DNA of 60,585 bases, counting the filler, from Bipalium vagum (Eukaryota): NCBI GenBank assembly GCA_037834085.1. It is 3 parts of 3 records of this genome, joined end to end, with 100 filler letters (N's around TTAATTAATTAA, not from the genome) between each part and the next. Parts side by side here need not be neighbours in the genome. Positions count along the whole stretch, not along the records: positions 34,375 to 60,585 come from JBBMKC010153641.1; 2 more parts are not named here. One strand, 5' to 3'. Below, in pieces: positions 78 through 53,633 of this stretch. Numbering within the stretch: position 1 is the first letter of the stretch; every line of letters starts with the position of its first letter. The translations under genes and the position numbers were made by a program. The notes beneath the pieces are model-generated. The model was not told the DNA's origin, did not search any database, and saw nothing but the letters and a program-made list of their open reading frames with translations.

Positions 78-1184
78 GATTTACAAATAATTACTAAAAT
101 GACTAAAATCATTTAATATTTGCAAATATAATGAGAAATTTCATTAAAAAATAACTAAAAATAATTCATTTTACATCTTTCTATTAATTTCAAAGACAAC
201 ATCATACGATAACCGATTTATCATCACAGAAAAAATTCCACAGAACTTGCTCGGATCTAGGACACGTTTTAATTATCCGTGCAATTAGCGCTGATCATAT
301 TTGTATGGAAATAAAACACAATGAAGAATGTAAATTAACTTCATACAACTAATGGTATTTTATCTCTTATCAGGACATATGTGGAGTAGAGATGAGTTTT
401 TGGAAATGACAGCGGAAATGAATTCGAATTACTTTGCCGATCCCAATTGATGTTCCAGAAACATGTCGACCTATCCATGTGGACACGAACGCACTTATCG
501 TATCTCTCCTCTTTTGTTTTCGATTTTCGCCTTTATAATATCTTATACTCGGCTTGTATTTTAGAAGTTTTTCTTAATTTCTGCATTATCCTAAAAACTA
601 TTTTGAATTCAATTGGGTATGAATAAAAGACTTTAATTTCGGTAACGAGAATATAACATTTTTGACAAAAAACATTATTTTTATTGTTCATATACTTGGT
701 GCGCCCAATATGTGGGAAGAAAATATAATTTTGTCATGCAATGAAAGTTTTATTGTAACTATATTGTTATAGGTTTAATTTTTGTAGTTTGTTTTATGTT
801 ATCATTACAGTTAATATTGACATTTGCAGTAATTATGGTTATGTGTGAGGAGGGTGTATTAATTTTATATTATTAAAAAAAACTTTTAATATTTATTTTA
901 TGAAAAATAGACACATGAAAATCAATCGTTTGTTTCTCCCAAAAATCTGGCAAATGATTATCTCAGTGTAATAAATGATTTTTCTTTAGAATGAATCCAA
1001 TTGGACACTCAATTTTGAATGTCTTCGTACAAACTGAATTGCATATCTTCCAGAGAATGTGTTATGAAACTGAATAAATGAAATTCTGTTGACTGTGGAT
1101 CTAGAGATTATGCTGAATGAATAAGGATTTCCAATTACAAGTCGAAAAAAAATATATAGAAGGAAACTATATCCTGTGTTGTGA

Positions 1185-1579
1185 AAAAACTTGTGGATTT
1201 TACACCATGATAACGCTCCACCCACAAAGTGTTATCAGGCAAGCTTTATTTGAGCAGCAAAAATATAACTGAACTTGAACATCATCCATACTCTCCTGAT
1301 TTAGCACCTTGCGATTTTTTCCTATTCCCAAAAATAAAATCGGCTCTTAAAGGTGTGCATTTTGTAAGTAAGGAAGAAGTACAAAATAGGACGATGCAGC
1401 TATTACGCAACCTGACGATTGGCAACCTGCAGCATTGTTTTGAACGGTAGAAAGAGCGTTTGCAGATGTGTGTGAATTGTGATGGATCATATCTTGAAGG
1501 AGACCATAAATAGTTGTACATACTTTGTGATTAAATAAAACTTACAGCATCAGTCTCGTTATTTTTGTGTGGCACCATG
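1185..1579 (+). mobile_element. mariner transposon 3' remnant (DD34D transposase C-terminus)
   Basis: Reads LWILHHDNAP...HHPYSPDLAPCDFFLFPKIKSALKG (ORF 1229-1450). Ends in TIR-like GTCTCGTTATTTTTGTGTGGCACCATG followed by TA. Confidence 0.85.
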
Positions 1580-3049
1580 TACATATATATACAGGTATAT
1601 ATTCACGACTTAAAAAAACATTATCTTATCTTGTAATGTAAAAGAAGGATTTTGCATTGAATTTTGGTTATTGCAGATTCTGTTTTCACGAATTCATCAT
1701 TTAATCCTTTTAGTTGATGTTGATATCGTTCCTACGTAATTCTTTCCTACGTAATATCCTGGATCAGGCCACGATTTCAGTTTCAAAAGCCAGAAAAGAA
1801 AAATAATAATAACGTTAATTTGAAATAAATTTATTAAGAGAAAAAAATGTAATAAGTGAAAGAAATAAAATTATGATAAAAATTTTATCAAATTATAGAA
1901 AAAATGTTTAAATAAAAAAGGTTATAAACGGAAAAACACTTTTAATTGTTAAATTTGAAAGAATCTGAAAAACTAAAAAATAATACCAAAAAATAGATTT
2001 AAACAAACAATAACTTCATTTTTTACTTTGTTTTCCATTCATGAATTACTTTAATCAATAATTTCGGCTAATGGTTATTAATATTTTATCAGTAATATGG
2101 GAAGCAGAACATAAAATAATAATTAATGTTAATAATTAACGTTAATAATACATATTATTCTCGTTCTGTGATGTCTGCGTATCAATAATATTAAAAGAAT
2201 ACCATTAAAATAATATGTACAGATGAAAGTGTAATTATAAAATCGAAGTAAAATAATGATTTGGGATATGTTAGAGGATATGGACTCCCATCATTAATTT
2301 GCAACATTGGTACTAATTTGGTAGTGATTTGAGTGCATTTGAAAGACGCTGGACGGAGATCGAACAGTATTGGTTAGTTAAGATGACTGAAAGAGAAACA
2401 GTACGATGAGATCCGAAGTTTGAATGGAAAATGTAATTATTAAAAAGGATGGTGACTATCTATAACAATTTTACCATATAATCTTTATCAATTTGTTAAT
2501 AGCTGAGATTTTTTGGCTCTCCTATATTAGAAGGCCAAATCGGTATGAGAGAAATAATCAATAGTGTACTTATAATATTAAAAGATATTTTCATCTAAAT
2601 TATGAATTTTCTGGAACTGAATTAAGCCTGGGTTAATTACTGAAGAAGAGTATTGAACAATGACAATAGAAAAACTAATTTGATATTATATAAGTGAAAC
2701 TCATATAATCTATTTAAAACGGAACAAATTTGATGTTTTCATTCAGCTGATATCATTATTTTTATTGTTTAAGCTGGTAACTATATAAATGGAGAAGAAA
2801 TGATAAATGTTATTATTGAATTCGAAGGTTTAAAGAAATCCTCGTAATGATGACGTTTTATTAACATTTCAAGTTATCTAAGATGTTTGGGGAAAAGGTA
2901 ATTATTCTAATGTATATTGTTATCATTAAATGAAATGTTGGCACATGATGTATGTTGCGTGAAGAGTTGTGAAAGCGAAAATGAAACAACGTTAACCTTT
3001 AATTGAAATTGCTTTATTGAACACAGTCTCCTGACAAATCAGCATACTA

Positions 3050-3610
3050 GCTCAATTTAATCGCTAATAATTCTATGGTATGTTTGAAGAACGATTCCCG
3101 AAAGTCTGCAAAATACTGTAACACATCTGCCATAGCTTTTTCATTTTATGAAAAAATCTTCCTGTAGAAATTGCGTTAAGTGTGCCTTTCCTCTAATAGT
3201 ATTCAGAGCTATTAGTTTTACCGCTTTCAAGGTAATCGATCAGCAGAAGATTTTTTGTATTCCAAAAAATATTGATATCATCTATTTTATTTAGGGTAAT
3301 AGTGATACATTCAAGTTTCGTCAATGGTTATGAAACAACCTGCTTTATTTTTATTTCAAAGATCTAAATGGAATGGTGTTCACAACGTTGTTTCCTACAG
3401 AGCTTTTGTGGTCGTTAAATTCGGGGCATCTGTTTTCCAAATACTTTTAATATATGCAAATCTTCTTTTAAAATCTGACAAACTTGCTCGTCTAAGATGA
3501 ACAAGTCTTCATCAATTTCATGCAACGTCAATTGGATATTTATGTATAATTTCGTGAATTCGGTTCCATTTTTAAGAAATTTTAAGATTTTCACGAGCAT
3601 CACCTTTGTT
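3050..3610 (-). mobile_element. decayed mariner transposase remnant
   Basis: Minus-strand fragments LTLHEIDEDL...QILKEDLHILKVFGKQMPR (WVPR-like) and FWNTKNLLLIDYLESGKT. Confidence 0.7.
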
Positions 3611-3719
3611 TCTTAAGCAACCACATTTTAATTCTACAGCTCATCGAGTGACAATAGAAAATTCAGGCTCAAATCCTTTTCATATTTAAACCATTTCCAG
3701 AAAAAAAATTGTTCTCATA

Positions 3720-4641
3720 CCAAAATTATAAATGACACAAATCACGAAGACAAACAGCGATGCTGAAGACAAAAAAAAACAAACATAGTGCAAGATAGAA
3801 AAATTAAGAAAATTTTCCTGTTACATAGACGTCAATCAGCGTGAATTATATATGCATTATATAAAGAATTTCAGGAAATGAATGTCAGCGTTTCTACCAT
3901 AAAACGCAGACTGAAAAGTTTTGGCTTATACGGCTGGGTAGCTGCAAAAACCTTTATTTAGAAAATTTAATAAAGCAAAGATCCTGAGATGGGTCACCAA
4001 ACACATAGACTAGAAATTTGACCAATGGAAAAGGTCTAGTAGACAAATGAATCGAACTTCCAGCTTTTCGGTTCGCAGAATGTTTGTTAGAAGATTTTCT
4101 GCAGAAAGGTATAAGAAAAAGTTTTTGGTTCCTAAAGTGAAGTTTGGAAGTGGTTCAATTATAGATTGAGGATGCCTTGGAGGAGAAAATGAAAAATATT
4201 TATGCATAAAAATGATCTTAAACATACCACCAAGAAATACAAAGCCTACTTGGAGGAGTTAGATCAGCAGAATGTTCTCAAAATAATGGAATGGTCTCTT
4301 CAATCACCAGAGCTTAACCATCTTGAATTACTGTAAGATGAATTTGACAGAAAAATTTGGTTAAAACTGCCATCTGGCTTGCAATAACACCAGAAATTAT
4401 ACTGAAATTGATCAATCTCATGTCGAGGATTTGTGTAGCTGTTATTAAAAATCAAGAAGTTACTTTGATGAATGTTATATGTAATATAAAGTAAATATTT
4501 TTCTTCTTAGTTCGAATAAATATGAAAATTATTGTTAAATTTTATAAATAAATTAACTGTGAAACATTTGCCATAAACAGTGTTCCATTTATGTTATACT
4601 TAAAAATGCAAGTGCCTATCTAAAACTTTTGATCGGCAGTG
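3720..4641 (+). mobile_element. decayed Tc1-like transposon
   Basis: Fragments NVSVSTIKRRLKSFGLYG, KVKFGSGSI and MEWSLQSPELNHLELL. Right end AAAACTTTTGATCGGCAGTG|TA is a Tc1-type terminus. Confidence 0.75.
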
Positions 4642-5172
4642 TATATGAAAACAACTATGTTTAAAGAAAAGATTAATTTATGTTTCTCACTATAATAAAA
4701 AAAATATTAAAGAATTAATTTTTTTCTGTTCACATTATATTATGAAACAAGTTCAATTAACAGTGATAAATCATATCAACAGAATGTATATGTCCAATGT
4801 GTTTAGTGAATTTTGCAATTTTAAGTGGACAGAAAAGACTGTACAGATTCGTAGATACATTTGGTGAATAGTCTGGCGAAAATATTGAATTTGTTAACAT
4901 ACGGAGGAATACTCATTTGGTCAAGAGGCATTCATAGTACTCGACTTTTATGTCTCATGACAATGGAAAGACAAATTTGTTAATGTAAATAATTAATATT
5001 ATACAGGGTTTGGGGAAATGAAATTAAAAATTTAATTCAATTCATTCTACTTTAGTTATTATAAGCTTTTGTTATTTTATTGGATAATTGTTGGAAAACT
5101 ATTGAAAATATAAAAGAATTTATTTGTTAATAATTTTCGTAAAACTTATTAACCAACTCATTGATTCAACTA

Positions 5173-6045
5173 TTAGGTTGGAAATAAATTTATGGCGGAT
5201 TTATGATTTCATTTTTTCATTATGAATTGTTTTGTTTTATTAATATAAATTTGTTTTTATCTTAAAGCGAAATATTTTAAAAAGGTAAGTCAACGAAAAT
5301 TTTTAATAAAGAAAAATAATCTAAAATCTTTAGGCATCTGAAAACGAGATAAACGTCATCCAATTTAGAACAATGTTCATTTATGAATACAAAATGGATC
5401 ATAATGTTGCACAAACAACTTGAAATTTGAACAGGAAGTTTGAAGTGAACGAAAGTTTCAAATATTTAAGGATGAAGATGGAGATATTTAAGATAAAGAT
5501 GGTCGTATAGGAAAACCTTCCATCTCCAATAACGATTTGAAGACACTGGTTGAGAATGATCGGCGTTCAACTGTTCGGGAGCTTAACTGTGCGCTATATG
5601 CTTTAGCTATCACTATTTTCAATCATCTGTGAGAAATAGAAAAGTTAAAGAAACTCGATAAATAGGGTCCACATGATATGACAGAAAAGCAAAAGATATG
5701 TCGTTTTGAGGTTTCGTCAACAATTCTTTTGCGCAACAAAAAGGAACTTTTTCTCAATTTTATTGTGGCATGTGATGAGAAATAAATCCTGCATGACAAC
5801 TGCCGACGTTCTCATTAGTGGTTAGATCAATATTAACCTCCTAAATCTAAATTACACCAACGGAAGGTTTTTGTAATTGTTTGGTGGTGATCCACAGATT
5901 TAATCCATTATAAATTCCGGAAATGTGATCAAACAATTCCCAACAAAAATATTGTTTGAAAATAGGTGAAATGTATCAAAAACTGAAGTGTATTTACAAA
6001 GCAATAGAATGGTCAATAGAAAGGTCCATTGATTTTACATAATAA
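5173..6045 (+). mobile_element. 3'-truncated mariner (Hsmar1/cecropia-like) remnant
   Basis: Starts TA|TTAGGTTGGAAATAAA. Fragments KKLDK*GPHDMTEKQKICRFEVS...FLNFIVACDEK*ILHDN, with many stops. Confidence 0.8.
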
Positions 6046-8514
6046 TACTTATATTAATTTCCTGACTATTTGATCAATTATTACAAAATAACAGGAAGAG
6101 GAAAAAATTAACAATAGCACACAAACCTTTCTGTAACATCATTGGATAGTAACAGTGTCAATATTTTTATTTTCCTAATATGAAAAATATGGAACTAAAG
6201 CATAATATTTTATCGATTTTTTAAAATGATATTTCATGACTATGATCAACAAATATTATAATTGGCTCTACCGGTAATATCCATAGGAGTCGTGACTCAA
6301 TATACAATGATATAAAACGGTCAATTTTTTATTCGATGAGTCAGAAACTAATTTTTTAAATGTTACTGGAGATTTCAAAAAAACATTTTTAAAAATTTTT
6401 TTTACAGTAGTTTTAAATGATTGGTTTTTCAAGCGATGTTTGAAACCATTTAATGATAATGATGTTGTAGGTTTATAATTTTAAAATTTATCAAACAAAG
6501 AGCTTAAAAAAAAATTAAAAAGATTAAGCGACAAATATGGATTATATAAAAAAATAATTTATAACAGATTTAGATAACTTAAAAAAATTTTTATTTTAAA
6601 CTGAAAAATTTTACAATACAAAAGACATTTTTTATATACGGTAAAATATCAAAACATTATAAAACCACATATTTTATATATTTCTCTTAAGATATCATGT
6701 TATTTACTGTTGTTCAGATAATCATGCTTTTATCTGAAATGAGCATTTAACTAATTGAGAATATAATTAAAACCATTAAAACAACAAACTCCATCTGTCA
6801 ATTTTTAAAAAAGTCTGCAACGATAACTAATTTTTAAATTAATCCAATTTTTGTAAATTTGTTATTTACAGAGAGCTATTATTAAAATTTTGAAAATTAA
6901 TAAATAATAATTAATATTTTTGATGTTACATAATATTTGTTTGATAAAACTATTCGAGCGCAAGTAAACATAATTTCCTAATTTTCGTCTCTTTAAATTT
7001 ACAGTATCATATAATTTCAGGATCATCTTTCGAGCATCTTAACACAACATTGTCACTGATATTTTTCCTGCAAAGAATAACATTAAAAAATGTAATTAAA
7101 TATAATTTCATTCTTTAATAATGTTAAACATGAAAATTTAAACCAAAAATTTAATTTTAATAAAATATTGAATTTTTAATTGTTAATAAATTATTATATT
7201 ATTATATTAATATTATATTATAAATTTTATACTTAAACAATAGTGAACTTCGAATATTAACCAATATTATCTCCGAAAGTATTTTTAAAGTCAATTATTG
7301 ACCGCCAAAATAAAACAAAGTTCTACATATTAATAATATATATTATTATAATAATTTAGAAAAATGACATAAGAATTCTTATAAAATTTTTTCTACATCT
7401 ATCTGTTAATAAATATTAATTTAAACACAAAAAATAAATAAATAACATTAATTTATTTAAAAATAATTTTTTTAATTTATTATAAAATATGTTTCTAAAA
7501 TAAACTTTATTATCGACAAATTTATACAATTTTTATTATTAATAAACCTTTAAATACCGTAATCAATGAAATAACTACTCAAAATTAATTCTTATATTTC
7601 ACAATAATTGCTTTTGTTTAAACTTTCATTCTTTTCAGTAGTTCAATATATCGAAAAAAATGAATAAATGAAAACATTAAACTATTTAATAAAACATCGA
7701 CATAAGATTGTTGAGTTTATAAAATTGATATATTTTAAATTTAATCGTGATATTTTGAGAATGATAAAATAAAAAAAACATTACAAAATTAGACTGAAAC
7801 ATAACAATATCATATAATAATAAAAATAAATAATAAAAATAATAAAAATAATAAATAATAATATCATGTATAAATAATATGATCAATATTAAAATGAGAA
7901 ACAATTATTTCTAATTAATCGGATATTTTGAAACATAAAAATAATTTTAATTTATAAATATAAATTATAATTTATATTAGAAAATTAAAACAAATAAGTC
8001 GAATATTTTAGATAATGAAATTCTATAAAATAAACAATTTATTCAAGACAAATATAAATATTTATTTTTCGCATTTTTGATCCTCCAATTTTGTTTACTT
8101 AATGATTAAATAAATAAAATATAATCCAGGCTTCCAATAAAATGGTGTCATTCATCTTTAAGGATCACTTTCACGCTCGATTTAATAATGTCAAAATAAA
8201 TTTGTATAATTTGTTGGGCTTGAATGAAGGCCAACGCTGAACGACCCAAAAATTACTTCTTTTAAAGTTCCAATTAATAATTCAAGTGACAAAATTGGTG
8301 GAATTTTGGGAATTTTGCAAATTTCAATTTACACTTGAAAATATAATTTATTTGGGATTTATATTATGAATCGGGTTTCATTGCATGGAGTCATTTTCTG
8401 TAAAATTTTCAATTTTTCTAACAACAATAATCAGAAAGAAAATCGATTGAAAAAATTATTTAAAATTTTTATCAGTACGCGGTCAGTTTAATTTAAATTC
8501 TGCTTTATTTCTCA

Positions 8515-12243: not shown

Positions 12244-12700
12244 TTGGGTTGATTCATAAGTTCATGCGTTTTTCTATATAAACTTTAAAAGGAAATTTTA
12301 AATATTTTCAATTGGGTGTGTGCGTTGAAAGCGAGAATATCTTAAAATAATTGTATTAATAAAAATAATTCACTTATTTAAACGAATTAACTGATTTTAT
12401 GTAGTTTGAATATTGTTCAAAATTATATTTTTTACACACTTTTAGATGGTGGAATATGTCACAAATAATCAACTATTTGTGCGAAGTGATTTTGATTTTT
12501 TCAGTATCAGAAAATCAGTTGCCGAAACCCACAAAATACTTATTGAGACTTATAGCAACACTATTTTTGTACTAATAAAAGATGGTTTGTAGGTTTCAGA
12601 AAGGGGATTTTAATGTGGAAGATTAAGAAAATACTGAACAAAAAAATCAGTATTAAGAAGAAGATCTGGAAGCATTATTTCAAGATGCATAACAAGCAAC
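12244..12700 (+). mobile_element. mariner 5' remnant
   Basis: TA|TTGGGTTGATTCATAAGTTCATGCG terminus followed by a decayed HTH region (KSVAETHKILIETY...GFRKGDFNVED). Confidence 0.6.
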
Positions 12701-12837
12701 CAGATTGTCAACATTATCTTTTGATCCAATTTCTAAGTGAGACATATTTCAGTATTTCGTCTTGGTCCAACCACTGTAGTGATCTTTGTTGGTTGTCAAA
12801 GATCATTGCTCATTACACGTCACAATTAAGATAAGAA

Positions 12838-13165
12838 ATGGTTCACTTCAATCAAAAATCTTTAGGGCAGTGTGATGGCTGTTCCGAACACAACTTCACA
12901 CTGACTCTGAAAATTGAGGAAGCTAAATCAAAGAATTAAGATCTTTTTATTTGTTTCATTGATATTGAAGATGCACTTGAAAATGCTCCAATCAAAGTTA
13001 TATTAGATATATTAGAAAAACAGAAAGTTGGTGAAAATGCACGACATATGATCGAAGACCTTTATCAAAATAAAGTTTTCTGCGAGACTTTTTCTACAGA
13101 ATCTATATAAGTTAAGAGGGAAGTAAGACAGGGCTGCTCGTTAACTGTGTCATAGTTTAATATAA
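12838..13165 (+). mobile_element. non-LTR retrotransposon reverse transcriptase fragment (R2/NeSL-like)
   Basis: One frame reads NQKSLGQCDGCSEHNFTL...*DLFICFIDIEDALENAP...IEDLY...VKREVRQGCSL...FNI. These are RT motifs 2-4 of RLE-type elements, with in-frame stops. Confidence 0.8.
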
Positions 13166-14525
13166 TGCAGATGAACTTTATTCAGAAGTATCGCACTAAT
13201 GAATTACCAACGAATTCAAAATTGAAAAAAGACGGAAACTGGAGAAATTTGTATGAGAAAGTAGAAACTGACTTAAGTGACTGCATCAACATAAAGTCTA
13301 TGGTACGAAAAAGGTACGTTACTGTACGCGATATCTTAGTTGATTTGTTATCCACTCTTAAAAAGAAATAAAAAATGCACGTTGAAAACGAAGGAATTTT
13401 TTAGATCAAAACTTAATTCCTGATAAACAATTAGTCAATAAGAGGCTTAAAAGATATGTATAAAATTATAGAAGTTAAAGTACCCCTTGAATCTGAGATC
13501 TATTGACGACACAAACAATTAAAAATACCAGACTTTATTGAACAAAGCCGAACTTGAACTTGGAAGAACATGGTACTATGATAACAAAACACTTATAATC
13601 GGAGCCGGGGAGTCATAGATCCCATAAAACTACCTAATACTTGGGGCATTAGAATTTTAAAAAACAGAAATTAATTAAATTATGGAAAAATATGCTGCGA
13701 GGACGATCATTAACACTCATATTATCCGGAAAAATTCATAGTCAGAGCTAAACATTAATAAAAACTCCGTGTCAATGACAACCATATCTTTGATTTGAAA
13801 AAAATCACTGAATTTGTTTTTTTTATTTATGTGCAAAATTTTATTTAAATATATATTCATTATTTTTGGTAGAGTCGAAGTACTTTTTAGCCTTACCACG
13901 TATATGTAAATCATGATTCTAATTTGGGGCAATAAGGATTCAGTATAACTATCAAATGAATGCTTTAAGTAGTCGTCTTCAAGGTTGGGGGGACTGTTTT
14001 GTCACACGGTATACATAAATACAAATAAACCAAATATTAAAAATATGAATTTTGTTTTTCAGTATAATTTATGCTGAAAACTGAGCGTATTTTTATTGAT
14101 TTCTTTTAATAAGTTAAATAATAGTACTTACCTGTTTACTACCAATAGATTATGACAATTTATTTTTACAAAATTTCTATTTATAGTAAATATCTTTAGT
14201 AACACAATGTTACTTTAATATTTATTATTACCAAATTTATTTTTTATAAAAAAATAGTAGTCATAACAACAAAAACAATAATAGTAGTGCGTTAGTTAAT
14301 TTATTAATTTTATTTAATTAAAATTTATAATTATTTTTGGAAATTTTCTTACAAAATTACAAAAATAAAAATAAACATAAAATTAAATAAGCCAAATTGC
14401 TTTTAATCACAATTCAGTGGTAATTAAGACAACATTGTTTTTGATCAATCATTTAATGCAGGGATAATTGGTTTTTGTTGGTATTGGTATTAATTTTTTA
14501 GCACAGAAAAATCTTATTGCATATA

Positions 14526-35121: not shown

Positions 35122-35786
35122 TTATAAATTACAAGGACCGTTTTTCTTTTTCACTGAGAAATCAAATAAAAATATTTTATTCATCTCCAATCTGGAACGA
35201 CTGCCTATGCCACACGCGAAATATTTACCATCGGAGACCGATCGCCATACGATTGCATCTTGAAAAATAACATCACTGTCGTTTACTCGCACAATTTCTC
35301 TAATGAACGAACCGTCGTTCAAACTCCACAATTTGACTGTTCCATCAGCACCAGAGCTCACAATAAATTTATCCAAAACCACTTGCACACCGGTTACGGC
35401 AGGCATATTTATGTCACCAGTGCCCAGATTGAACAGACACTCACCAGTCGATATGTTCCAGACCCTCACTGATTTGTCAGCGTTTCCACTTATTGCCAAA
35501 GACTCTTCAGTATTCATCACGATTTCGCAAGTCAAAGACCGATGACCGGAAAGTATCTGAGTGCAAATTCCTTTGACTCGATGCCAAACTCTGATCGTTG
35601 TATCAAGACTCGAAGACAAAATGACTTGTTTTCCCAGATATAACGCATAGATGCGATTAGTGTGACCGATAAGAACATGCCTACAAGCACCGGTCTCAAG
35701 GTTCCACACCCGGACACTATGATCATAACTTCCAGACACAGCACAATAAGAATCAACTTTGACACAACGAATAGCACCGATATGTC
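35122..35786 (-). CDS. FBXW7-like gene, terminal WD40 exon
   Basis: TAG acceptor ends at 35787; phase 1; lies within ORF 35122-35820. Confidence 0.92.
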
Positions 35787-38344
35787 CTATCAATGAATAA
35801 ATATCCCAATTATCGATCAAAGTTATTAATGAAAAAAATAGGTCAATAATAAATTAAATATAAATAGATTTTCGCTGAATTATTGATCCATTTTTACAAA
35901 TGATTTACCATCCTTCAGGATCAAAATTATATTTTAGTTAACCGTCAAATATTCAAATAAGGAAGCTTTCAATTTTTCATGTGAATTTGAATGTGTTTAA
36001 CTACATTCATTTCCAACACTCATGTTATGATCTACTGACTTTTAAAAGGATATTATTTGATTAATAAATAAAAATACAAATAATAATTCAGGTTTACACA
36101 TAATATATTTTATATTATTCAAAATATATTTAAAATTAGTTTGTTTCAATTTTATATATATATATATTTTGGAAAGGTTAAAAAGATTTAACTATGGGTT
36201 CTGCATTTATTCATCCAATTACAAAATAGTGATTTCCGCTATGAAAGGCATCCGTTTTTAGTCATATCATGACAAGTGATGAAAAATAGGTACCCCCTAA
36301 AATAGCCGAAGATATTCAGTAAAATGTATAAATGTCGATCAATTCTTATTCACTGGTCTACAGCATTTTTGTATCGTTTGAAAAGGTTTTGTTACTTCCA
36401 TTACAAATCAGGTAAGGCATGATTAGGATGTTTTAAAGAACATAAATAAAAATGGTGCCGCATATGAATACCTATCCAATAGATTTCTAAAAATAAGTGA
36501 TGCAAAGTTGAAAGAGGGCATTTTCATAGTTCCTCAAATTTGGCAATTGATTAAAGATACAAACTTCTCTTCAAAGTTTAATCCGATAGAACTTAATGCT
36601 TGGAATTCATTTGATCAGGTAGTTAATACTTTTTAGGAAACCGCAAGTTGGATGATCACGACAATTTAGTTAAGAATATGATCTAAGATTTTCAAGTCCT
36701 AAGATGTCGAATGAGTATAATATGAACTATATAGAATTATATAATATAGAAATGAAAACTAAACTCGCAACTGAATGATTTTCCTAGCAACCTTGGAGCC
36801 TATGGGAAGGAGCATGGTGAACGATTTCATCAGGACATAGCCATTATGAGAATAGTTATCAGCGCAGATGAATGTCAACATAATGGCAGACTACTGGTGG
36901 CTACTAAAGCGTAACAATGCCACAACTATTTATAGTAGAAAGGTTCATATGAAAACGTTTAATTGTAAATAAAATAATTTTTTACTTTAAATTAAGTGTT
37001 TTTATAAAAATTATTTTTGCATAAACCAGATGTCCTACAGGTAAAAGGACTTCATATTTGTTAATCACCTGCAAAAATTACACTATATTATCATAATGCC
37101 GTCTCCGGTACAAAAAGGTTAAAAATTGTAGAGTAGTATATAAATGTTTACGTCTTCTGGTTCAGTGCTGATATCATACACCTTTCTCTGCTAAATCTAT
37201 TTTTTCTATTTATCATGTAATTGCATATCTCATATTAAAACACCTAATAATAAAATTATTAATTAATCTCACAGATGAATAAATAGAATCAAAAAATAAA
37301 GGCCGTAAAAAATATTTCTGAAATTAAAAATCGACTTTCCTAATTGCAGATTTAATTATAATATTTAAAATGTATTTAAAATATAATTAACCATTACAAT
37401 TAATTAATGATTACCATTTAATACATACACACATTGGCCAGTTTTCAAATCCCATACCCGTATGGTTGAGTCTCGGCTACCACTGATAAGCCGTACTTTC
37501 TGATTGTTGTCCTCTTGCACAGTAAATGCAGTTAAGCAGCGTATAATCCTCTCGTGACCGTTGAACACAAATACACTCTTTGAAGTCAAAAGCTGCCAAA
37601 CGCACACCGTACAATCTGTGCTGCTAGTTGCCAACATTATTTGGCCATCAATTCGAAAAATTTCCATTGCCCAAACACCATTCATATGAGCTCTAAAAGT
37701 GTTCACAATCTCTCCCAGTGACATGTCCATCACCGCAACTGTTCCATCGTCAGAACCTGAGACCAACCAATTGTCCAATAACATTAGTCCGGTGATAATA
37801 AGACCATGACTCAGAATAGCGACAGACGGTTTAATTTGATCTTCAGTTTTCCAATTTGATAAAAGAGTGTAATACGAATAATATTTATGCTTGAGAGATT
37901 CACCATCTATGGCCATTGATTCCTGAGTTAATAAAATTATTAATGAAATTAACGTCATTATTGTCAGATATAATCTTTAAATTCAAAGGCATAAATATAA
38001 TTTTTAAAATTTTATTTTAATCAGTTAATAGAACTATTTAGAATATCTTTATTACCTTCGGAACTTGTAGTTCCGTACACTTGTTAAGCCATAATAACTG
38101 ATCATTAGAAAGCTCATTCCATACTCTGGAAACCTATTATTCGAATTTTTACACGTTATGGTATTATACTTCAATTACCTGAGAACATGTATGTAAGTCT
38201 TCAGCATTTAATAAATTTAAAATTTGCAAACTAATCTCAACTGGTAAATAGCCCAAAAAATCTTTACTAAAATTAATTTTAATTAAATATTAAAACTGAT
38301 AACTTATAAGATAATTACCCATTCCTTGAAAAATTATATTTCAT
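35122..38344 (-). CDS. FBXW7: F-box/WD40 repeat protein 7-like (SEL-10/Archipelago/Cdc4 family), join(38344-38319, 38266-38179, 38133-38056, 37922-37415, 35786-35122), ~454 aa
   Basis: F-box DFLGYLPVEISLQILNLL...SQVSRVWNELSNDQLLW. WD40 repeats VSGSDDGT, ISGSRDSTIRVWD, VSGSYDHSVRVW, GHTNRIY, SSSLDTTIRVW, GHRSLT, ISGNADKSVRVW. FBXW7-typical tail IVWR...CGIGSR...KIFLFDF. All four introns are GT-AG with compatible phases; the first exon is least certain. Confidence 0.88.
36360..37138 (+). mobile_element. Chapaev3-like (CMC) transposon 3' remnant in FBXW7 intron
   Basis: ISDAKLKEGIFIVPQIWQLIKD...AWNSF and FPSNLGAYGKEHGERFHQDI motifs; frameshifted. Confidence 0.75.
37415..37922 (-). CDS. FBXW7-like gene, WD40 exon
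   Basis: CAG acceptor ends at 37923 and GTAATC donor starts at 37414; lies within ORF 37404-37958. Confidence 0.92.
38056..38266 (-). CDS. FBXW7-like gene, two F-box exons (38266-38179, 38133-38056) split by a 45-nt intron
   Basis: Spliced translation KDFLGYLPVEISLQILNLLNAEDLHTCSQVSRVWNELSNDQLLWLNKC is a canonical F-box. Confidence 0.88.
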
Positions 38345-41738: not shown

Positions 41739-42335
41739 TACTGGTCGGATTAAAAGGTTTTATGCTTTTTTGTACTGAACACTTATTATCATATAACACT
41801 CAAATTTGATGTCAAATTTTCACAATGACTCAACTATACAATAAAAACCTTATATTTTGTTGATCCACCCCTATTTTCTTAAAATCAGCTAATCTATTAA
41901 GCATGCTCAGAATCAGTTTTTGAATCAGGTCGATGGATTTTGCTTCCTAAGCAGTTAGAATTCGTTCCCAAAGTTCCAATCGTGTTTTTCATAATTTTTC
42001 ATGAATTTCTATCAACATAATTCCATAAGTTCTCTATTGGGTTCATATCTGGTGATTGGGGAGAGACAATTAGTGAACGAAGGTATCGAGTTTTCATCAA
42101 ACCACTTTTTGGTGAATTTTGAAGTATAGCAAGGAGCGTTGTCTTGCTGGAATAAGTCATTTCTATCGGGAAAAAATTTGGCAATCAACGGTAACGATCC
42201 TTGGTCCAAAAATTAACAATAAGTGGCGCCAATCACATTAAGTCAATCAATCTATACCAACGCTCCAACTCCAAAATAGCTAAAGCAGCTCCAATCATCA
42301 CTCTATCGTCAAATTTCACGGTTTTGTTCATAGTT
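41739..42335 (-). mobile_element. Tc1 3' remnant
   Basis: FQQDNAPCYTSKFTKKWF and PQSPDMNPIENLW in two overlapping frames. Confidence 0.85.
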
Positions 42336-43359
42336 TTTTTTTATTTAAAAATGGTACCTAATTTGAAATGGTACTTGTAACCCTTATGAAATTCATAGTC
42401 TATGGACAAACATTAAAATGTCTGCCCATAAACCAAAAGAAAGGATAGTAAACATTATATTAAATGCAAAGAAATGCGAAAAAGTAAGTTTTCATGATAA
42501 TATAGAAAAAAGAATATATTTTAAATTATTTAAAATATATTGTTATTTATCTGTAGTTTTAACCATTATGAAATGATTTCAATCATGGAACTTAAACATG
42601 ATCATTAGTTTGTATTCAGTTATTTTATAAATAGTTTTTGTTAAAATTAAAAAATATTTTGTAGTGAATATTTTTAGTAATTGTTGTCTCCTGTTTTGGA
42701 TGTTGTTAATTTGGGATTGAATGTCTGAGAAATAATGTAATGAAATTATTTTTAAATTAATTAATTGAATGAATTCAGTTTTTCTCCATTTGTGGTTGAT
42801 GCGACTATCTTAGTTTCTGTAAAATAAGATCAAGTTAAGTTGTGAAAAGTTGATTTGTGACCGAATGACGCTGTAATTTTTATTGGCAGTGGAACAATCT
42901 TGAAAATCGGGAAATAAGTTGAATGGAATAATTTGGGATTCATTTTGATTGATTGAGATATTACACTATTCGCTTTTGTTATAGTAGTTTTAAAGCTTTT
43001 TTATATACATAAAAATTTTTTTTGAATTTTTCTCATTCTACTAACCCTGGATTAAGCATTATTACTTTTTGCAATCCTAAATGGATTTATAATAATGGAT
43101 AGAATTGGCTATCTATTCTGTCATTGATGATAGGAGAGAAAAATATTTTTGAGACAGTTTTGGCTGCCTCCAAAATTTTTAAAAACAGCAAAGGCCTTTC
43201 AAAAATTAGTTATAAATGAAACTGAAAGAATAAAAAAGTTAGTAAACCAACATTTCAGAGAGAAATTTTTTCAGAAAACTTAATGGTAATTCATTATAAA
43301 AAGTATAAAACAAAAATATTCTGTATTTTAGAACTATCAGAATTATTGTGTGAATTTTA

Positions 43360-46300
43360 ATATAATATACTGAGCGTCAACTTTTTAGCACACTAAGAAT
43401 TTTCTTTACAAATTCATGATTATGATCAAATTATGATCTTTATACAAGATAATAACACCGAATATGGTTAAGTATCACAGATAGTTATTGCTATAATCAA
43501 TAGTCCATAATAGATCTTCATCAAAATTGTCTAATATGGAGTTGTCTTCATTGTCGTCGGCGTTGTTGTGGTCGATCATCATGTTATCAGCTATTTTATC
43601 GACATCCAAAGCAACAAAACTTGACATTGACCTATCTCGAAGAAAGACCCATTGTGCGGTGCTCCATTTAATATTTGAAGAGACACAAAATTAGGCAATT
43701 GTAATGATGATTTTCTTCTTCAGCTCCAGTTTTGATAGTATTGTGTTATTCCTCTTTGACCATGACCCTAAACAACCAACGATAAAAGTGTCTAGTTCAA
43801 CGATCCATCCTGGAAGTGGAGTTTTTGTCGTTAGATCGTCGTAGTGAACCAGTTTCTGATAATGTTTTCAATATATGTTCTTTTCAGTATCAAATGGGCA
43901 TTTAACATCGATTAAAAATAGTTTTTTTGATTTCATGAATTCAATTTGCAAGTCAATGATTGAATGTATTGACTTTCAAAATTGACATATTTTGCTTCTG
44001 TGTAAAATAAAAGTTGTTGAGCTAGATAATCTTGAATTGAATTGTGACGAGAGAGAATAAATATTCTTGAAGGCACACATTCAACGAGAACATGTGCTAG
44101 TGATTCTTCTGATACTGGACATCTGGGACATACTCTGTTTGTGCTTCGATGCCTTGCATTTATTTGGGTGATATTATTTGTATGATCGTTCTAGATGGAT
44201 AAAATACCAGGCTGAGATACATATTTTCCCCTGAAATATTGGTGTTGTTGACAGTTTTGAAGAACCAATACTCGTAGCAAATCCTCCAGCACTTTGTTGA
44301 CGACTCCGTTTGTGGTTCCACGAGTTTTGTACCAGTGTATGAAGTAATTTTGATAAGCATTTTAAGTCTTCAGGATTGATTAGATCTTTAGTTTTCGTGT
44401 CTTGTTCAAGGCATTGGGAAAATTTGAGACAAATGTCTTTTTTCATCTTTTATGAATGATAAGGTGATAGAATGTCTATTTTTCAATTTGAAGATAGCAT
44501 CTCTAATTTTTGTCCACCAGCATTTTAATCATTAATAATGATTATTGCCTTTTTTATCCAAATTTTGTTTTGTCAATTATTTTGTCAATTATTATTTGGA
44601 AGGCACTTGTAGGTTTGTATAAGAAGACTTTTCGAAGGTTTTAATCTGTTACAGATCTTTTTAGTGATTGTCCCAGAAACAATCGTTTTTCCTTTATTGG
44701 ACTTATCTCTTATATAATTTTTACAATTTTATTATCAGCTTCATCGTTTGAACATTTTAATTCTTTAATGTTTAGCAGCGAGCTGTACTCTGTAAATGTA
44801 CGTATTTTTAACCTTTACATGTGAACGTATGGGTCTTAATCTAATAACTTTTATTTGCTTGCTTATGAGCTGTGCCGTGCTTACTTTGATTTTATTGATG
44901 TTAATTAGGTTTCATGATTTACTGTTAAAAATTGAGTAAATATATTCACATATTAGAAGACCGCTTTCGGATGGAGATCTCATTTTCTGAATTTGTCCTA
45001 TTTTTGTTATTTTAAACACAATTTGCCCGAGAAGGAAGTATGTCACAAAAGTGAAGATAATTTTTAAAAGTTCACTCCTTTCGTCGCAATGAGGATTTGG
45101 ATCCAGACAGTATATTGATTCAATAAAACATCGCAGACAAAAAGACCCCAATAATTTTTTAATGTGTCAAAGTATGGAAAGAAGATCATGGTTTTGTCTT
45201 TAAACATTTTAAGTGCCAAATACGTTTTAATGAATTCCAGATTTTTAGTGACTAAGGCTTTGGATATTATTGGATTGGTAACAATGATATCCGGAGAGTT
45301 AATTTAATGACAGCAATATGTAGCTGTGTGGTTATTCTTAAAAAATAATAAAGCTGAGAGGTCTTTCAGCGCAGAATTGAATGTTGTGGAATCAATAGAA
45401 ACAGTAATCTTTTTGAAGGAGTTACATAGATTTCCTTGCCCTGAGAGTTGAGAGATGAGTCGAGTAGATTTTAAGAGATTGTGTACATTTTTAGAATCTC
45501 TTTGATGTACAAGGGAGCTATTGAAAAGTTAGAATCATCCCATTTATGACTGATCATTGCTCCGTAGGCAGCAAAAAATAGTCCGCAATCATAGTCATTG
45601 TTCTGCCTTGTAATAGTTAATTCTCGATCAATGACTCTTGTATTCAGTTTAAAAGATTCATTCAAATCTTCATTAAGATTTTTAATATTTTCATGTACAT
45701 ATTCAGGCACGAAAGCGGAAGGAAGAGGGTCAAGGTAAAAGGAAACTCTAGTTATTTTACAATAAAAAATATGATCCAATGTTTGTTTAGGATATTCAGT
45801 GGACATCTAAGCCTTTCAGCTACGTACGCTACAGGTGTGAAAGCCAGATACGATTCATTTCTATTGGCAAGGCCAAATTCAATAAGAGGATTGACAGCAA
45901 AATTTTGACAGTTATTCACAGTTTTGGACAAATAAAAATGAATGTCGATATCAGTAAAAAGAAAATGATTAAAAAAGGAAATTCGTTGTCTGATTGAGGG
46001 ATATCAGTGCTATTTACACCTGTCAAATCTATTAGATTTGAATCAGGGTAGACAGGTGTAGGCACTATTTGTCAATTTGAGGTACTGGGAACCTGTGGCT
46101 CAACCAGTTTCAATCTTGTTCTTGTTGATTTTGGTAAAAATCAATTTTATTTTCTATAAGTTTCTCAGAGACCTCATTCGAGATTTTGTCATTTTGATTA
46201 TTTTTTTCATTCACCTTGGCTCCCACCCATGTTCTGAAAGTCATTATTTAGTCATGTGATACATTGTTTGCATATTCTAAAGCAAGCTAAGTTGTTTTCA

Positions 46301-46560
46301 AATAGAATTAATTCTTCAGATTTTGCACAGACTTGACAGTGATCTTGATTATTAATCTTATACTGATGTTCATCAACGATCACTGAAGAATTTTTTTTCC
46401 TGGATTTTTCATTAGTGGTCTTGCGTAAAATGGATTTATGTTGGCTAATGGTGGAATGTTTAAAGATATTTTTCGTTTTCCAAATCATTTTTGAATTTTA
46501 GATGAGGCATCTTATCAGTTGTGAGCTCGATAAGGTTATTATTTAAGAATGAAAATTTTC
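43360..46560 (-). mobile_element. decayed RLE-type non-LTR retrotransposon (NeSL/R5/Utopia-like) with PHD-like finger, Ulp1 protease, CCHC knuckle and restriction-like endonuclease; RT core missing
   Basis: CQVC...LILFE...CFRICKQC...GWEPR (PHD-like, ~46220-46345). PLNILNKHWIIF, FYLDPL and RQNNDYDCGLF (Ulp1/C48, ~45500-45980). CPRC-x7-H-x4-C, SRHNSI, FLIDVKCPFD and FIVGCLGSW (RLE, ~43740-44140). Confidence 0.85.
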
Positions 46561-47021
46561 CCCGATTGTATAATGTAGAAATTTGTACATTAAAATGATA
46601 TTTCTATCATTGTGTTCTGTAGGTATCTGTAGTTTTGTTAACTTCGTTTGTTCTGCTATGTTATTGCAGTGAATATGAATAATGCTTAAAAATTTGTTTA
46701 GAGATTTTGAAAAATTTTCTGATAAATTGTCTATGAGGCTAATTGGAGTTCCAATATTATTTCTTCCTGTTTTATCTCGATTTAATCATATATTTACGCC
46801 ATATACCTTATCCTTGTACAATATATATTTTTAAGATCGATAATGTTTAGGATCTCAGCAACGTTTAATTTCGTCTGTAATATTTGATTAATTTTATAAC
46901 ATTTGTTAGCGCTTTCGCTAGATTTATTTAGCCACCCAGCTCTGAAAATGCAGTAAATAGGATCTTTCTTTCTCGTTTATATAGTTTACGAATCAAAACT
47001 TTGGAGCTTAAGTGATGATTA

Positions 47022-48800
47022 CACACCTGTAACAAAACTTTTTTGTCTTTTCCCTCTTTATTTTTTAACTTTATTCAGTTACGCATGTTATAATAGGAAG
47101 GGTGACAAAATTTAACAGAAATCGGTAGAATCGTTTATACTTACATCACTTTTAACAAAATAAAAAAATGTTACAAAACTAGCAATACTTTATTACGCAA
47201 CAGTACATTAATCAAAGAAAGAGATGTTTCTTTGGAGTGACCATATATAATCGGCCATCATTTCATTTGGTCGACTGTCATCAAAACGATTTTCAAAGGC
47301 TTGCATGGTTTTATGTAGCCTTTCGCCGTGTTCATTGGAAAATCTCCCAAGGTGACGTCCAAATTCCTTCTTATGCTTGAAAAGATGCACCTTATTGATA
47401 ACTCGTTCATAATCCATTACTGCCAAGCTATCGATAAATCATCTTTTCTTTGTTCCCAGTTTCCACTCACTTCCTTACCTAACACACCTTTGACTACCAA
47501 GCAAAAGTTTTCCAAGACCATAAGCTGGCAAGGTGTCATACTGCAAGAGAAATTGAAGTCATTAATGAGACGACGAATTTCTGGACCATTGAAAACACCA
47601 TTTTCAAGTTTGGCTTCAGACTTATTAAATTTGTTGCGAATAAACTTGTAGCAGTTACTATTCTTGTCCAAAGATTTGACAAACTTTTGAAAGAGGCCAA
47701 GCTTTATATATAAAACAGGTAAAACAATTTTTTCTGCTGTTACTAATGGCTGACTGTCACAAGATGTACGAGGTGGCCAAATGTTATCTGATTTGAAGTC
47801 AAGATGACTGTTTCTAGAGTCAAACATGCAGTACAAGCATAGGTATTTTGCGAAACCACTTTTTAAACCCATAATAAAATTTAATACTTTAAGATTGCAC
47901 ATTATCAGCCATTCATGACTATGGTAATCAAGTACCTCAAATATTTCTTGATTGAATCACGTTCTACTTTCATATGTCCTAAGGCTATTGGAAAGATGGG
48001 TAGATCATTATTTTTGTACATGAGACCTGACTTTAGACTTTTCATTGAAGAATTTATAAAAAGGCGCCAATCACTTCTGTTATATTCAATCTGTAAAATA
48101 TTTAGCAAGCCTCCGATATCATGACAAAAATTCATTCCATCATGAGAAGAAAAGAAGCCCAGAATAATTTCGTTACGTTTCACGATTTGTCTTATCGTAA
48201 CACCAATTAATTGTGTTCGTATGAGGATCTTTCCTTAATATTGAAAGACATTTTTTTGATTTCACCTTGCTCAGACTCAATTCCCTACAAAAATTCTGAA
48301 AAAAGTTGGTAGACCATTCAAATCTAGACTCATTTCCATTTATATCAAATGCACACATGCTTGCCTTACTAGAATCAGTACTACTGAAAGGTGACAATGT
48401 CGTGCGATCAGCCAGGTCCGGACAATCATTTCTGGATATTTGACAATCGTCACAATCAAAATAAATAGGTTTATTTTTTAAAGTCGGTTTTTCAATTGAG
48501 CAAAAATAGCAAATACCGAAATCATGGCTTTTGTTTTTAGTCCAAATCACTGGGCACTGAAAAGGAAATTTATCACTGCCATTCCGACTGTACATATATA
48601 AATATCGATAGCAAGAAGGAAATACAAAGGACTGTGCAAAACCTTAGCTATTTTCATTTACTATTACTTATGAAATATTTCCAATAGGCATCCTGAACTG
48701 CGGCATTAAATTTTCTTGGTTGCCTCGCAATGAATTTCGCACAAACAAAGCAGAAATCATCCGGATTAATTTTATGGTTTGCTTTGTTGATGACAATAAA
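47022..48800 (-). mobile_element. Chapaev3-like (CMC superfamily) transposase pseudogene
   Basis: NPDDFCFVC; FPFQCPVIW...H..GICYFC; WRLFINSSMKSLKSGL; GLKSGFAKYLCLYCMFDSR; LYIKLGLFQKFVKSL; SEAKLENGVFNGPEIR; SNEHGERLH...MMADYIW. Spread over ORFs 47208-48595 with frameshifts; ends uncertain. Confidence 0.82.
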
Positions 48801-51569: not shown

Positions 51570-53633
51570 ATCCATGAAGCAATTATGAATGATCGAAAAA
51601 TCAAAATCCGCGAGTGTTTGGAAAATAATTCACGATGAATTGGAAATGAAAAAGCATGTCGCAAAATGGATGCCATGCACTTTGACAATCGACAAAAAGC
51701 AACAACGAGTTAATGATTAAAAGCTGTGTTTAAGTGTTTTTAATGGAAAATCAAATGAATTTTTGCCTAGTTATATAATAGTTGATAAAAAGTGGATACA
51801 TAACTATTAGGTAACCAATAAAGTTCGTGCGGTTTTAGCTAAAAAAAAAACAAAGATTTATTTTAAAACACAAATACAATATCAATCATCGAAATAATCA
51901 CCGCCACACTTTATAATATTCTGCAAACGTGTCACTAAATGTTGTATACCGGTTTTGTAAAAATCTTTCGATTTGGAATCAAAAAAACTCCGGACCTCAT
52001 CGATAACACCATCTCGAGTTTGGAATTGCCGCTATCTCATAAAATTGTCCAGAGATAGGACAAGATGGTAATCATTTGGGGAAATATCTGGAGAATAAGG
52101 TGGATGTGGTAATGTTTCCCGCCAAGCTCAAAATTTTTTTCTTGAGTTAATCTTGCGATATGAGGTCTGGCGTTATCTTTTAAGAAAAGCACATTCTTTC
52201 GATTGATCAAAGAAGGTTGTTTGTTTTACTCGCTCAAGCTGATCACAATAGACTGCAGCGGTGATGGTTTGACCACTTTACAAGAATTCATAATGAATAA
52301 TTCCTGCTGCTGTCCACCAAACACACAATAAAATCTTTTTTGGATGTAAGGGGTTTTTGGAGTATGCGGTATTGGAGCAGTTGAGAATAACCAATGACGA
52401 GATCGCTTATTATTGCTAAATAAAAGCCATTTTTCGTCGCAGGTTAATAATCGTTCGAGATAGAACTCTTTTTTATATCTTGATAAGTTTGCTGAACAAA
52501 CGGAAAAGCGGCTTATTTTTTTGAATTCTGAAAAATCATGTGGGACAATTAATTTCCACTTCTTCCCCAACTGGTGAAGGTGAATCCGAATGGTGTCATC
52601 GCTCACATTGAACATTTTTGCAAGCTCTAAGCACTTTAAACTGGAATTTTCATCGATCACTTCTTTGAGATTGTTGTTATCAATAATCGTTGGTCTTCCA
52701 GAACGTGCTTCATCGGTTAGGCTGAAAACCTCCAATGAAAATTTTTGAAACCACTTTTGTGATGCACGATCGCTTACAGCATCATCTCCAAACGTCCTTC
52801 ATTTTTATTCGCGCAGCTTCGGCAGCTCTCGTGCCAAGTTTGTATTCATAGAGTAAACTACTTCGAATTAGCGCTTTTTGGGAGGCAATTTTGACTAAGT
52901 AATTGAACTTTTTAATAATCTTTTCTAATTTTTTTAAAAAAATCAATTGAAAAAAAAAAATTACCTAACCGAAATAAAACAATATAAATAATTCCTATCA
53001 ATAAGTATCAATAAAATCAAAAAAACCCGCACGAACTTTATTGATTACCTAATACATACCGTAATCATTACGATAGTCAAATCAATGGGTAAGACCCGGT
53101 GAAAGTGCTCCACACCGGCCAAAATCACAGCAGTCACCTAGAAAGGTTATGGGAACTGTTTTTTGGGAGACCTATGGAAAACTATTCATTGATTTTCTTG
53201 AAAAAGGGAAAATTATAAAGGACAATATTATGCAGTATTATTGGATCAATTAAATAATATAATTTAAGGAAAAAGACCACGTTTAGCAAAAAAGGTGATG
53301 ACAAGTGTAATTTCAAAGGCTAAAACTGCGCTACAATTTGCTTCCTCATCTATCGTATTCTTAGGACTTAGCACCTAGGGACTTTTTCTTATTCACAAAC
53401 TTCCAAAGATGGCTCATTGGTAAAAGATTTTACACAAATGGTGAAGTCATATTTGAAACTAGAGTATATTTTGAAGTGTTGGAGAAATCTTATTTTTCAG
53501 AGGGTAAAAAACACTTGAGGGTCGATGGAAGCGAGTATCTTCCTAATATATAACTATGTTGAATAATAAAACTTGTTCAAGTCTTAAAAATAGTTTTTCT
53601 TTGTTAGGCCAGGGACTTTTTGAACGACCTAGC
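51570..53633 (+). mobile_element. Himar1/irritans-like mariner relic interrupted by a younger mariner
   Basis: KWMPCTLTIDKKQQRVND, IVDKKWIHN|YIP, KVMGTVFWE, HLSYS*DLAPRDFFLF; right end GGCCAGGGACTTTTTGAACGACCT. Confidence 0.8.
51807..53052 (-). mobile_element. full-length mariner (DD34D), 1246 bp, frameshifted transposase
   Basis: 30-bp TIRs TTAGGTAACCAATAAAGTTCGTGCGGTTTT and revcomp TTAGGTAATCAATAAAGTTCGTGCGGGTTT (2 mismatches), with TA TSD. Motifs RSGRP, LTCDEKW, DNARPH, HPPYSPDISPNDYHL. Confidence 0.93.

Follow-up and report, generated by a model that had tools for sequence, protein, structure and literature searches.

Retrotransposons that combine a reverse transcriptase (RT) with a restriction-like endonuclease (RLE), such as R2, insert by target-primed reverse transcription, and the N terminus of R2 carries zinc fingers and a Myb domain, not protease domains. 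A single Ulp1-like protease domain has been reported in nematode NeSL elements and in Utopia-1_TSP, and planarian LIN families target tRNA or 28S genes (Kojima and Jurka 2015, PMC4640811, in the part of that paper available). A DNA transposon, Ginger1-9_HM, carries Ulp1 together with a PHD finger in its Ginger1 transposase, for which ubiquitin or SUMO handling was proposed (Bao et al. 2010, PMC2836005, available part). Here, we describe an element read on the minus strand of a 60,585-nucleotide stretch of Bipalium vagum DNA (the window; all coordinates count along the whole of it, filler included). This element is a decayed copy of a multi-copy, RLE-type retrotransposon without long terminal repeats (non-LTR), and its solid unusual feature is a conserved pair of protease domains, one live and one dead, rather than a PHD finger. 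Our best explanation, to which we give a probability of about 0.7, is that the copy has lost its RT and that its relatives encode, besides an RT, a CCHC knuckle, and an endonuclease, two domains of the Ulp1/C48 protease fold: a live one, which probably strips SUMO-type tags, and a dead one with Ser in place of Cys, which probably binds without cutting. The observed parts of this explanation are the domain order, the catalytic residues, the fold, the clade, the conservation of the dead domain, the decay, and the loss of the RT.

The sequence-only reading of this locus had placed a NeSL-like element at 43360..46560, with a PHD-like finger and a Ulp1 protease ahead of the RLE. The motifs that it quoted are present on the minus strand in the order given, spread over three reading frames. 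The first protease domain has its catalytic His at 45,781 (NKHW), Asp at 45,731 (YLDPL), and Cys at 45,587 (QNNDYDCG), that is, the His-Asp-Cys triad and oxyanion Gln of Peptidase C48. At the C-terminal end lie a CCHC knuckle (44,130-44,077), RHN (44,049), and a PD-(D/E)xK-type endonuclease with IDVKCPFD (43,912) and IVGCLGSW (43,783), as in RLE elements. Pfam matches to single open pieces were weak (Peptidase_C48, E 0.0015; zf-RVT, E 0.0079). When 43,400-46,150 was aligned with tolerance for frameshifts to a profile of 19 relatives, the score was 492.5 bits, whereas five shuffles scored 19 to 23 and the opposite strand 19. Given the colinear alignment and the existence of full-length relatives, we assign the protease and the endonuclease to a single element.

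The claimed interval lies inside the element, but the element is longer, reaching about 43,230 and about 47,020. Summed contig depth was 342 to 2846 over 43,219-47,022, versus 37 to 88 in 42,268-43,218 and about 22 for single-copy contigs, and loose contig ends lie at 43,259 and 43,429. The window is AT-rich (GC content of 15 to 37% per kb) and contains N gaps. The order of Ulp1 ahead of RLE was correctly seen, but a deletion of the RT and a second, dead protease domain had been missed. The features of the element, all on the minus strand, are as follows.

43230..47020, minus strand: whole element, RT-deleted copy, about 3.8 kb, delimited by depth and loose ends (ends approximate, not base-exact).
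46255..46785, minus strand: N-terminal coding frame, like a first open reading frame (ORF1-like), with no recognised domain ahead of the Cys cluster.
46252..46338, minus strand: Cys cluster C-x2-C-x14-C-x3-C-x2-C, either one half of an ADD/PHD-like finger or a treble clef with a single zinc, ending at an in-frame TGA, then CTA.
45499..45958, minus strand: Ulp1/C48 domain 1, with His/Asp/Gln/Cys intact but interrupted by a frameshift close to 45,750 (PF02902 E 0.0015; independent E-values with our own profile of 2.8e-11 and 9.4e-5).
44885..45375, minus strand: second Ulp1/C48-like domain, dead, clustering with the dead domains of relatives (independent E-values with our own profile of 2.4e-14 and 1.3e-5).
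44575..44884, minus strand: helical region, pre-RT in relatives, colinear with profile columns ~365-476.
44530..44580, minus strand: junction where the RT is missing (profile columns 477-992, ~1.55 kb), with the deletion at 44,562 and an adjoining 12-base tandem duplication.
44200..44529, minus strand: end of the thumb plus linker, from tblastn to P0005 residues 991-1100 and profile alignment.
44041..44130, minus strand: CCHC zinc knuckle and RHN motif, from zf-RVT (E 0.0079) and profile alignment.
43630..43975, minus strand: restriction-like endonuclease (IDVKCPFD, IVGCLGSW) with two in-frame stops, 50% identical to P0002/P0003 (E 3e-16 and 1e-15).
43478..43629, minus strand: acidic C-terminal tail, present likewise in relatives, from profile alignment.
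43230..43477, minus strand: likely 3' untranslated region with a T-rich end, in the bin of highest depth, with no tRNA or Rfam family in it and no target gene after it.

Relatives were reached from the endonuclease, a piece of which matched 2 of 61 candidates at 50% identity (P0002 and P0003). A search with P0005, a protein of 1339 residues with Peptidase_C48 and RVT_1 that falls in the cluster of one of these matches, gave 8 proteins from 3250 candidates. Both domains were present in seven of the eight (P0005 standing for P0003), and the other, P0014, begins after the proteases. A HMMER search of cluster representatives contributed the best 150 of 29,485. Open reading frames are intact in P0005, P0012, and P0016, and relatives carry RVT_1, which the window copy lacks. 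In trees from which near-duplicates and proteins with too little coverage of the region were omitted, multi-protease elements formed one RT clade (FastTree support, 0.958; 147 RTs, no named reference elements). The C-terminal tree placed the window copy inside the multi-protease clade (0.965) as sister to P0040 (0.924), and its second protease domain grouped with the dead domains of relatives. As in some NeSL clade members, the Ulp1-like protease lies upstream of the RT position, by eye against alignment S5 in the available part of PMC4640811. The element is NeSL-like by domain order, a candidate member of the NeSL clade, and when intact would probably work as NeSL and R2 do. In line with this, the model of P0011 predicts an RT closest to R2 structures (9nl3, E 6.6e-28).

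Searches further afield were largely negative. Three short NeSL/Utopia motifs had no match among the collected proteins, and a search with the Ulp1 piece found no homologue among 44 candidates, which is weak evidence. None of the 83 pattern matches in viral contigs was a relative, and the 72 loci with distant RTs in prokaryote genomes contained no Ulp1. Among 80 of at least 440 metagenome loci, a Ulp1-like domain was found only in L001, an intact-looking relative at 81-5732 of its locus whose sole Ulp1 domain is the dead one. Its ORF1 (734 codons) and ORF2 (1148 codons) are in frame, separated by one TGA followed by CAA, and its 3' region contains short tandem repeats. A separate HMMER match, the RLE-type retrotransposon protein P0118, combines a Ulp1-like domain with a 2OG-Fe(II) oxygenase domain at its N terminus (E 2.4e-24).

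The second protease domain lies between the intact protease and the RT position. Here the catalytic His is Tyr (45,153) and the catalytic Cys is Ser (44,965). The same substitution recurs across the family. Twenty-two RT-proximal domains could be aligned from 24 clade proteins, and 19 of them have Ser at the catalytic Cys; the others have Cys (P0024), Ala (L001), and Val (P0033). P0038 has no such domain and P0025 only a weak second one. Upstream first domains retain Cys in 17/17, and His and Asp/Asn wherever covered, while the His of the second domain varies among relatives. In four proteins (P0018, P0029, P0030, and P0031), one live and two dead C48-like domains stand in tandem. The pair of live and dead domains is retained across elements only 28 to 42% identical, and in 7/7 chosen pairs conservation of the dead domain equalled or exceeded that of the live one (e.g., 0.83 versus 0.75, 0.85 versus 0.75, and 0.40 versus 0.24). 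Dead domains clustered together (support, 0.818), with the Cys-bearing domain of P0024 just outside, a grouping that fits a single old duplication.

The dead domain keeps the fold of the CE clan in structural models. The AlphaFold model of P0007 (pLDDT, 77.8; pTM, 0.54) shows two like domains joined by a flexible linker, and residues 148-334, the dead domain, are predicted to match SENP5 with a Z score of 17.8 and a root mean square deviation (rmsd) of 3.1 over 168 aligned residues. Further matches to the modelled domain were SENP3 (Z 17.5), yeast Ulp1 (17.3), and NEDP1 (16.1).

The functional part of our explanation is conditional. Mobility of intact elements would depend on target-primed reverse transcription. 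Domain 1 would likely strip SUMO-type tags, SUMO being a more probable substrate than NEDD8, ubiquitin, or a protein of the element itself, and domain 2 would likely be a non-catalytic module retained for binding. The benefit would be relief of SUMO-dependent repression at the element or its landing site. In flies, loss of SUMO raises R1 RNA about 1000-fold and R2 RNA about 300-fold (PMC7676866, available part), and this repression gives a de-SUMOylating element a motive.

Several observations weigh against this explanation. Knocking down the host Ulp1 in flies likewise raised R1 and R2, so de-SUMOylation is not simply activating (PMC7676866, available part). The fold is common to SUMO, NEDD8, and bacterial CE-clan enzymes, and the substrate cannot be predicted from it. 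The Ser codon of the window domain is one base from Cys, and this copy alone is no proof of a dead domain. Several RT-proximal domains (P0168, P0022, P0021, P0018, and P0029-31) have His alongside Ser, which makes altered catalysis possible. Among seven distant members, conservation was 0.23 for the dead domain versus 0.28 for the live one and 0.22 for the pre-RT region. L001 lacks a live protease, showing that the pair is not obligatory. The tree supports are FastTree local values in trees with no named reference elements. Finally, the contig evidence comes from the one public sequencing run that matches the window (0.37 of its words shared), with no RNA run among the matches listed. This run may be the source of the assembly; it is letter-identical to the flanks of the element at a depth of about 22.

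The Cys cluster upstream of the proteases (46,338-46,252) has a pattern with a single occurrence in the window, and 30 shuffled windows together gave one more. Over 33 residues it aligns without gaps to the PHD of the DNMT3B ADD domain (E 0.21), with four Cys in exact register; these correspond to ligands 1, 2, 5, and 6, which make up one zinc site. One further Cys is a place off (ligand 4), ligand 3 is Phe, and the closing W-x-C-x2-C pair is absent. The finger that had been proposed therefore stands in part, as a match to one zinc site, but the closing pair is missing and GWEPR, which had been counted as its end, is in another frame than the cluster. The eight-ligand cross-brace of a PHD is not present in the window copy. 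Fourteen contigs of other copies cover 46,261, where they differ by a silent change in a Cys codon. The sequence upstream of the cluster is linked within individual contigs both to Ulp1 (45,827-46,405) and to the endonuclease (43,804-46,329). The N-terminal frame has 177 codons and 2 stops, versus an average of 14.3 in shuffles and none of 2000 with 2 or fewer (the frame being chosen post hoc). This frame and the contig linkage make a chance juxtaposition unlikely. We consider the cluster to be at least a probable one-zinc finger, like half of an ADD-type PHD, with putative histone reading.

Just after the cluster, at 46,254-46,249 on the minus strand, an in-frame TGA is followed by CTA. TGA-C is a leaky-stop context, but the TGA may equally well be a decayed Trp codon. 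No read-through hairpin was detected after the in-frame TGA in the window or in L001 (z, -0.52 to 0.18), leaving the UGA-C context as the sole read-through lead.

How the upstream region and the protease pair worked in intact elements can be read in several ways. The intact family may have had a complete, all-Cys ADD-type PHD upstream of the proteases, coupling histone-tail reading to de-SUMOylation, with the second zinc site lost here by decay. The only PDB families returned for the cluster were the DNMT3B ADD PHD and CHD4 PHD1 (E 0.079), and the top Pfam match was PF21255 (E 0.022). A single base change would turn the Phe at ligand 3 into Cys, a W-x-P-R-stop lies 12 codons on in another frame with its stop also one base from Cys, and the cluster is tied to Ulp1 and endonuclease in the contigs described above. 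Ginger1-9_HM provides a precedent for PHD with Ulp1 (PMC2836005, available part). However, every E-value is above significance or its match falls under the curated cut-off, with no canonical Pfam PHD match, and the exactly kept Cys would make a single site. To restore a PHD, one residue would have to be substituted, the frame shifted, an absent Cys codon supplied, and a stop changed; 12 of 241 indel rows contained no such majority indel. No PHD/ADD pattern was found in 182 proteins, nor a PHD by Pfam in 28 long proteins; the only hit in 152 loci was a low-complexity repeat in L009, a false match; and the Atlas search with the Cys cluster returned no PHD cluster. The upstream region is absent from most of the clade proteins, since 14/15 start 65 or fewer residues from the first protease, and the two sequences that cover it, P0025 and L001 ORF1, are without a PHD. 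On this balance, a complete PHD in the intact family is a tentative reading at slightly less than even odds, and the same holds for a single-zinc finger there, both judged from sequence. The protease pair may instead serve the element itself, the live domain processing its polyprotein (e.g., separating an ORF1-like part from the RT) and the dead one being only a spacer or a nucleic-acid-binding surface by the RT. L001 keeps the dead domain directly before the RT with no live partner, its in-frame TGA suggests a read-through polyprotein, and viral CE-clan processing proteases (adenovirus, African swine fever virus) have the same fold. But the top fold matches are SUMO proteases (Z 17 to 18) rather than viral processing enzymes (Z 9 to 10), L001 has two open reading frames and no live protease to process them, and the protease stands at the very start of most clade proteins. 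We regard self-processing as unlikely, although it is the chief alternative to the tag-stripping role. The most ambitious version, an undescribed ancient RLE clade in which a live SUMO-type protease, a substrate-capturing pseudo-protease, and an ADD-type PHD form a reader-catcher-eraser head that strips SUMO from repressed chromatin for transcription or insertion, is quite improbable.

The missing RT likewise has competing explanations. Relative to the profile, the window copy has 8 frameshifts and 9 stops, and columns 477-992 (516 columns; the whole RT and most of the thumb) are absent at about 44,562, the alignment being otherwise colinear. None of the 57 contig records on 44,400-44,760 covers 44,530-44,568. 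On either side, the listed single-copy contigs extend beyond the join with a different sequence, and five share a loose end at 44,525. Since no contig bridges the join and other copies continue past both sides of it, the loss is most likely private to the window copy, or a misassembly. If assembly had wrongly spliced two copies together, the 5' part of one to the 3' part of the other, this would explain the unbridged join in the matching run, the 12-base tandem duplication at it, and the N gaps of the scaffold. The letters at the join are unlike other copies and yet still homologous to the thumb end, and the contig set is incomplete, which both speak against such an error; we hold it unlikely. 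The RT-less form could also be an amplified, non-autonomous family that kept its protease and endonuclease and borrowed an RT in trans. The loss is clean, in order, and confined to the RT, and a second RLE relic in the window likewise has a large internal deletion. The coverage hole alone proves nothing, because the window's own copy is also absent from the contigs at 44,530-44,568. Nevertheless, the unbridged join, the single-copy contigs continuing beyond it, and the many frameshifts and stops make an RT-less family very improbable. Depth is highest, 2846, at the 3' end and declines along the element to 342 at its 5' end, a trend and not a copy count, which fits a dispersed family with 5' truncation, and contigs of roughly 2 kb at depth 350-375 that match the window only in patches point to a younger subfamily. 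Whether the gap is a deletion or a misassembly, the family architecture rests on the intact relatives.

A check of the flanks, which the sequence-only reading had recommended for finding a target, yielded no target-site sequence at the window copy. No tRNA, rRNA, or snRNA was found at either end (no Rfam family reached its gathering score, and three sub-threshold matches were judged to be chance), and no target-site duplication was found. The L001 relative abuts the 3' portion of a tRNA whose anticodon is GAA, together with a T-run (6754-6820; E 0.0023, under the gathering score), making it a candidate tRNA-Phe-targeting family. Target specificity may thus exist in the clade.

A decayed, multi-copy DNA transposon (47,024-~48,800, minus strand; one terminal repeat found, no Pfam match) abuts the 5' end of the element; we take its motifs to recall a Chapaev-type transposase. 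The second RLE-type relic (12,600-13,500, plus strand) joins the 5' half of an RT to a decayed endonuclease and scores 136 bits on the clade profile, with no Ulp1 detected beside it. Elsewhere, the window contains pieces of a Core-2/I-branching glycosyltransferase gene (PF02485; 24,163-24,714 and 30,811-31,641, minus strand), a WD40 beta-propeller gene (35,122-37,976, minus strand), a mariner-like element (51,805-53,054) with 32-base inverted repeats and a broken transposase with HTH_48, and Tc1/mariner and hAT-like fragments at 14,868, 19,309, 20,840, and 40,148.

The locus in the window is a dead relic, and the interest lies in its family. A role for transposon-borne Ulp1 has been proposed in the literature, the available parts of which contain no test of it, and a live enzyme with a conserved pseudo-enzyme offers a clean, testable system. 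Should the pair prove to bind and remove SUMO, the retrotransposon would encode its own defence against a pathway by which R1 and R2 are strongly repressed in flies. Gene-insertion tools based on RLE elements are under development (PMC13580325, available part), which gives practical interest to new accessory domains and to tRNA-directed relatives such as L001.

A comparison with known systems places the family among several of them. It resembles NeSL and Utopia-1_TSP in having Ulp1 upstream of the RT, a CCHC knuckle, and a C-terminal RLE, and in the H-W, D, and Q-x-D-C-G motifs of alignment S5 (PMC4640811, available part). In contrast, those elements have one protease domain, and the window family has a live domain followed by one or two dead ones; the window copy also differs in lacking the RT and any SL1, U2, or other target. 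R5 and LIN, which belong to the NeSL clade of RLE elements, have 28S rRNA or tRNA genes as targets, and L001 similarly ends at a tRNA fragment. The statement that planarian R5 carries Ulp1 could not be confirmed, as the available part of PMC4640811 names only nematode NeSL and Utopia-1_TSP and reports no protease for R5/LIN, which are compared here by description, not by tree. R2 structures (9nl3, 9dou, and 8gh6) are the best matches to the predicted RT fold of P0011, and CCHC and RLE are common to both. Ginger1 and Mutator also have a transposon-borne Ulp1, once with a PHD, but they are DNA transposons with a DDE transposase, and no dead duplicate is described for them (PMC2836005, available part). 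Among cellular clan CE (C48) proteins, SENP5, SENP3, Ulp1, and NEDP1 match the dead-domain model (Z, 16 to 18; rmsd, 3.1 to 3.5), and domain 1 has their H/D/Q/C; unlike them, the identity is 12 to 16% and the second domain is without the nucleophile Cys. The DNMT3B ADD-type PHD aligns over 33 gapless residues with the four Cys of one zinc site in register, but the cluster has no preceding GATA-like finger, has Phe as ligand 3, and lacks the last Cys pair (E 0.21). A literature search, with the NeSL-1, R5, and Fell et al. 2025 papers and Repbase outside its scope, found no live/dead Ulp1 pair in a retrotransposon and no PHD in a NeSL-type element, and the available parts of PMC13580325, PMC7650587, and PMC9977147 contain nothing on a live/dead Ulp1 architecture. 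Single Ulp1 domains in NeSL and Utopia are already published; by the sequence comparison and as far as literature was found, the conserved live/dead pair appears to be the new part.

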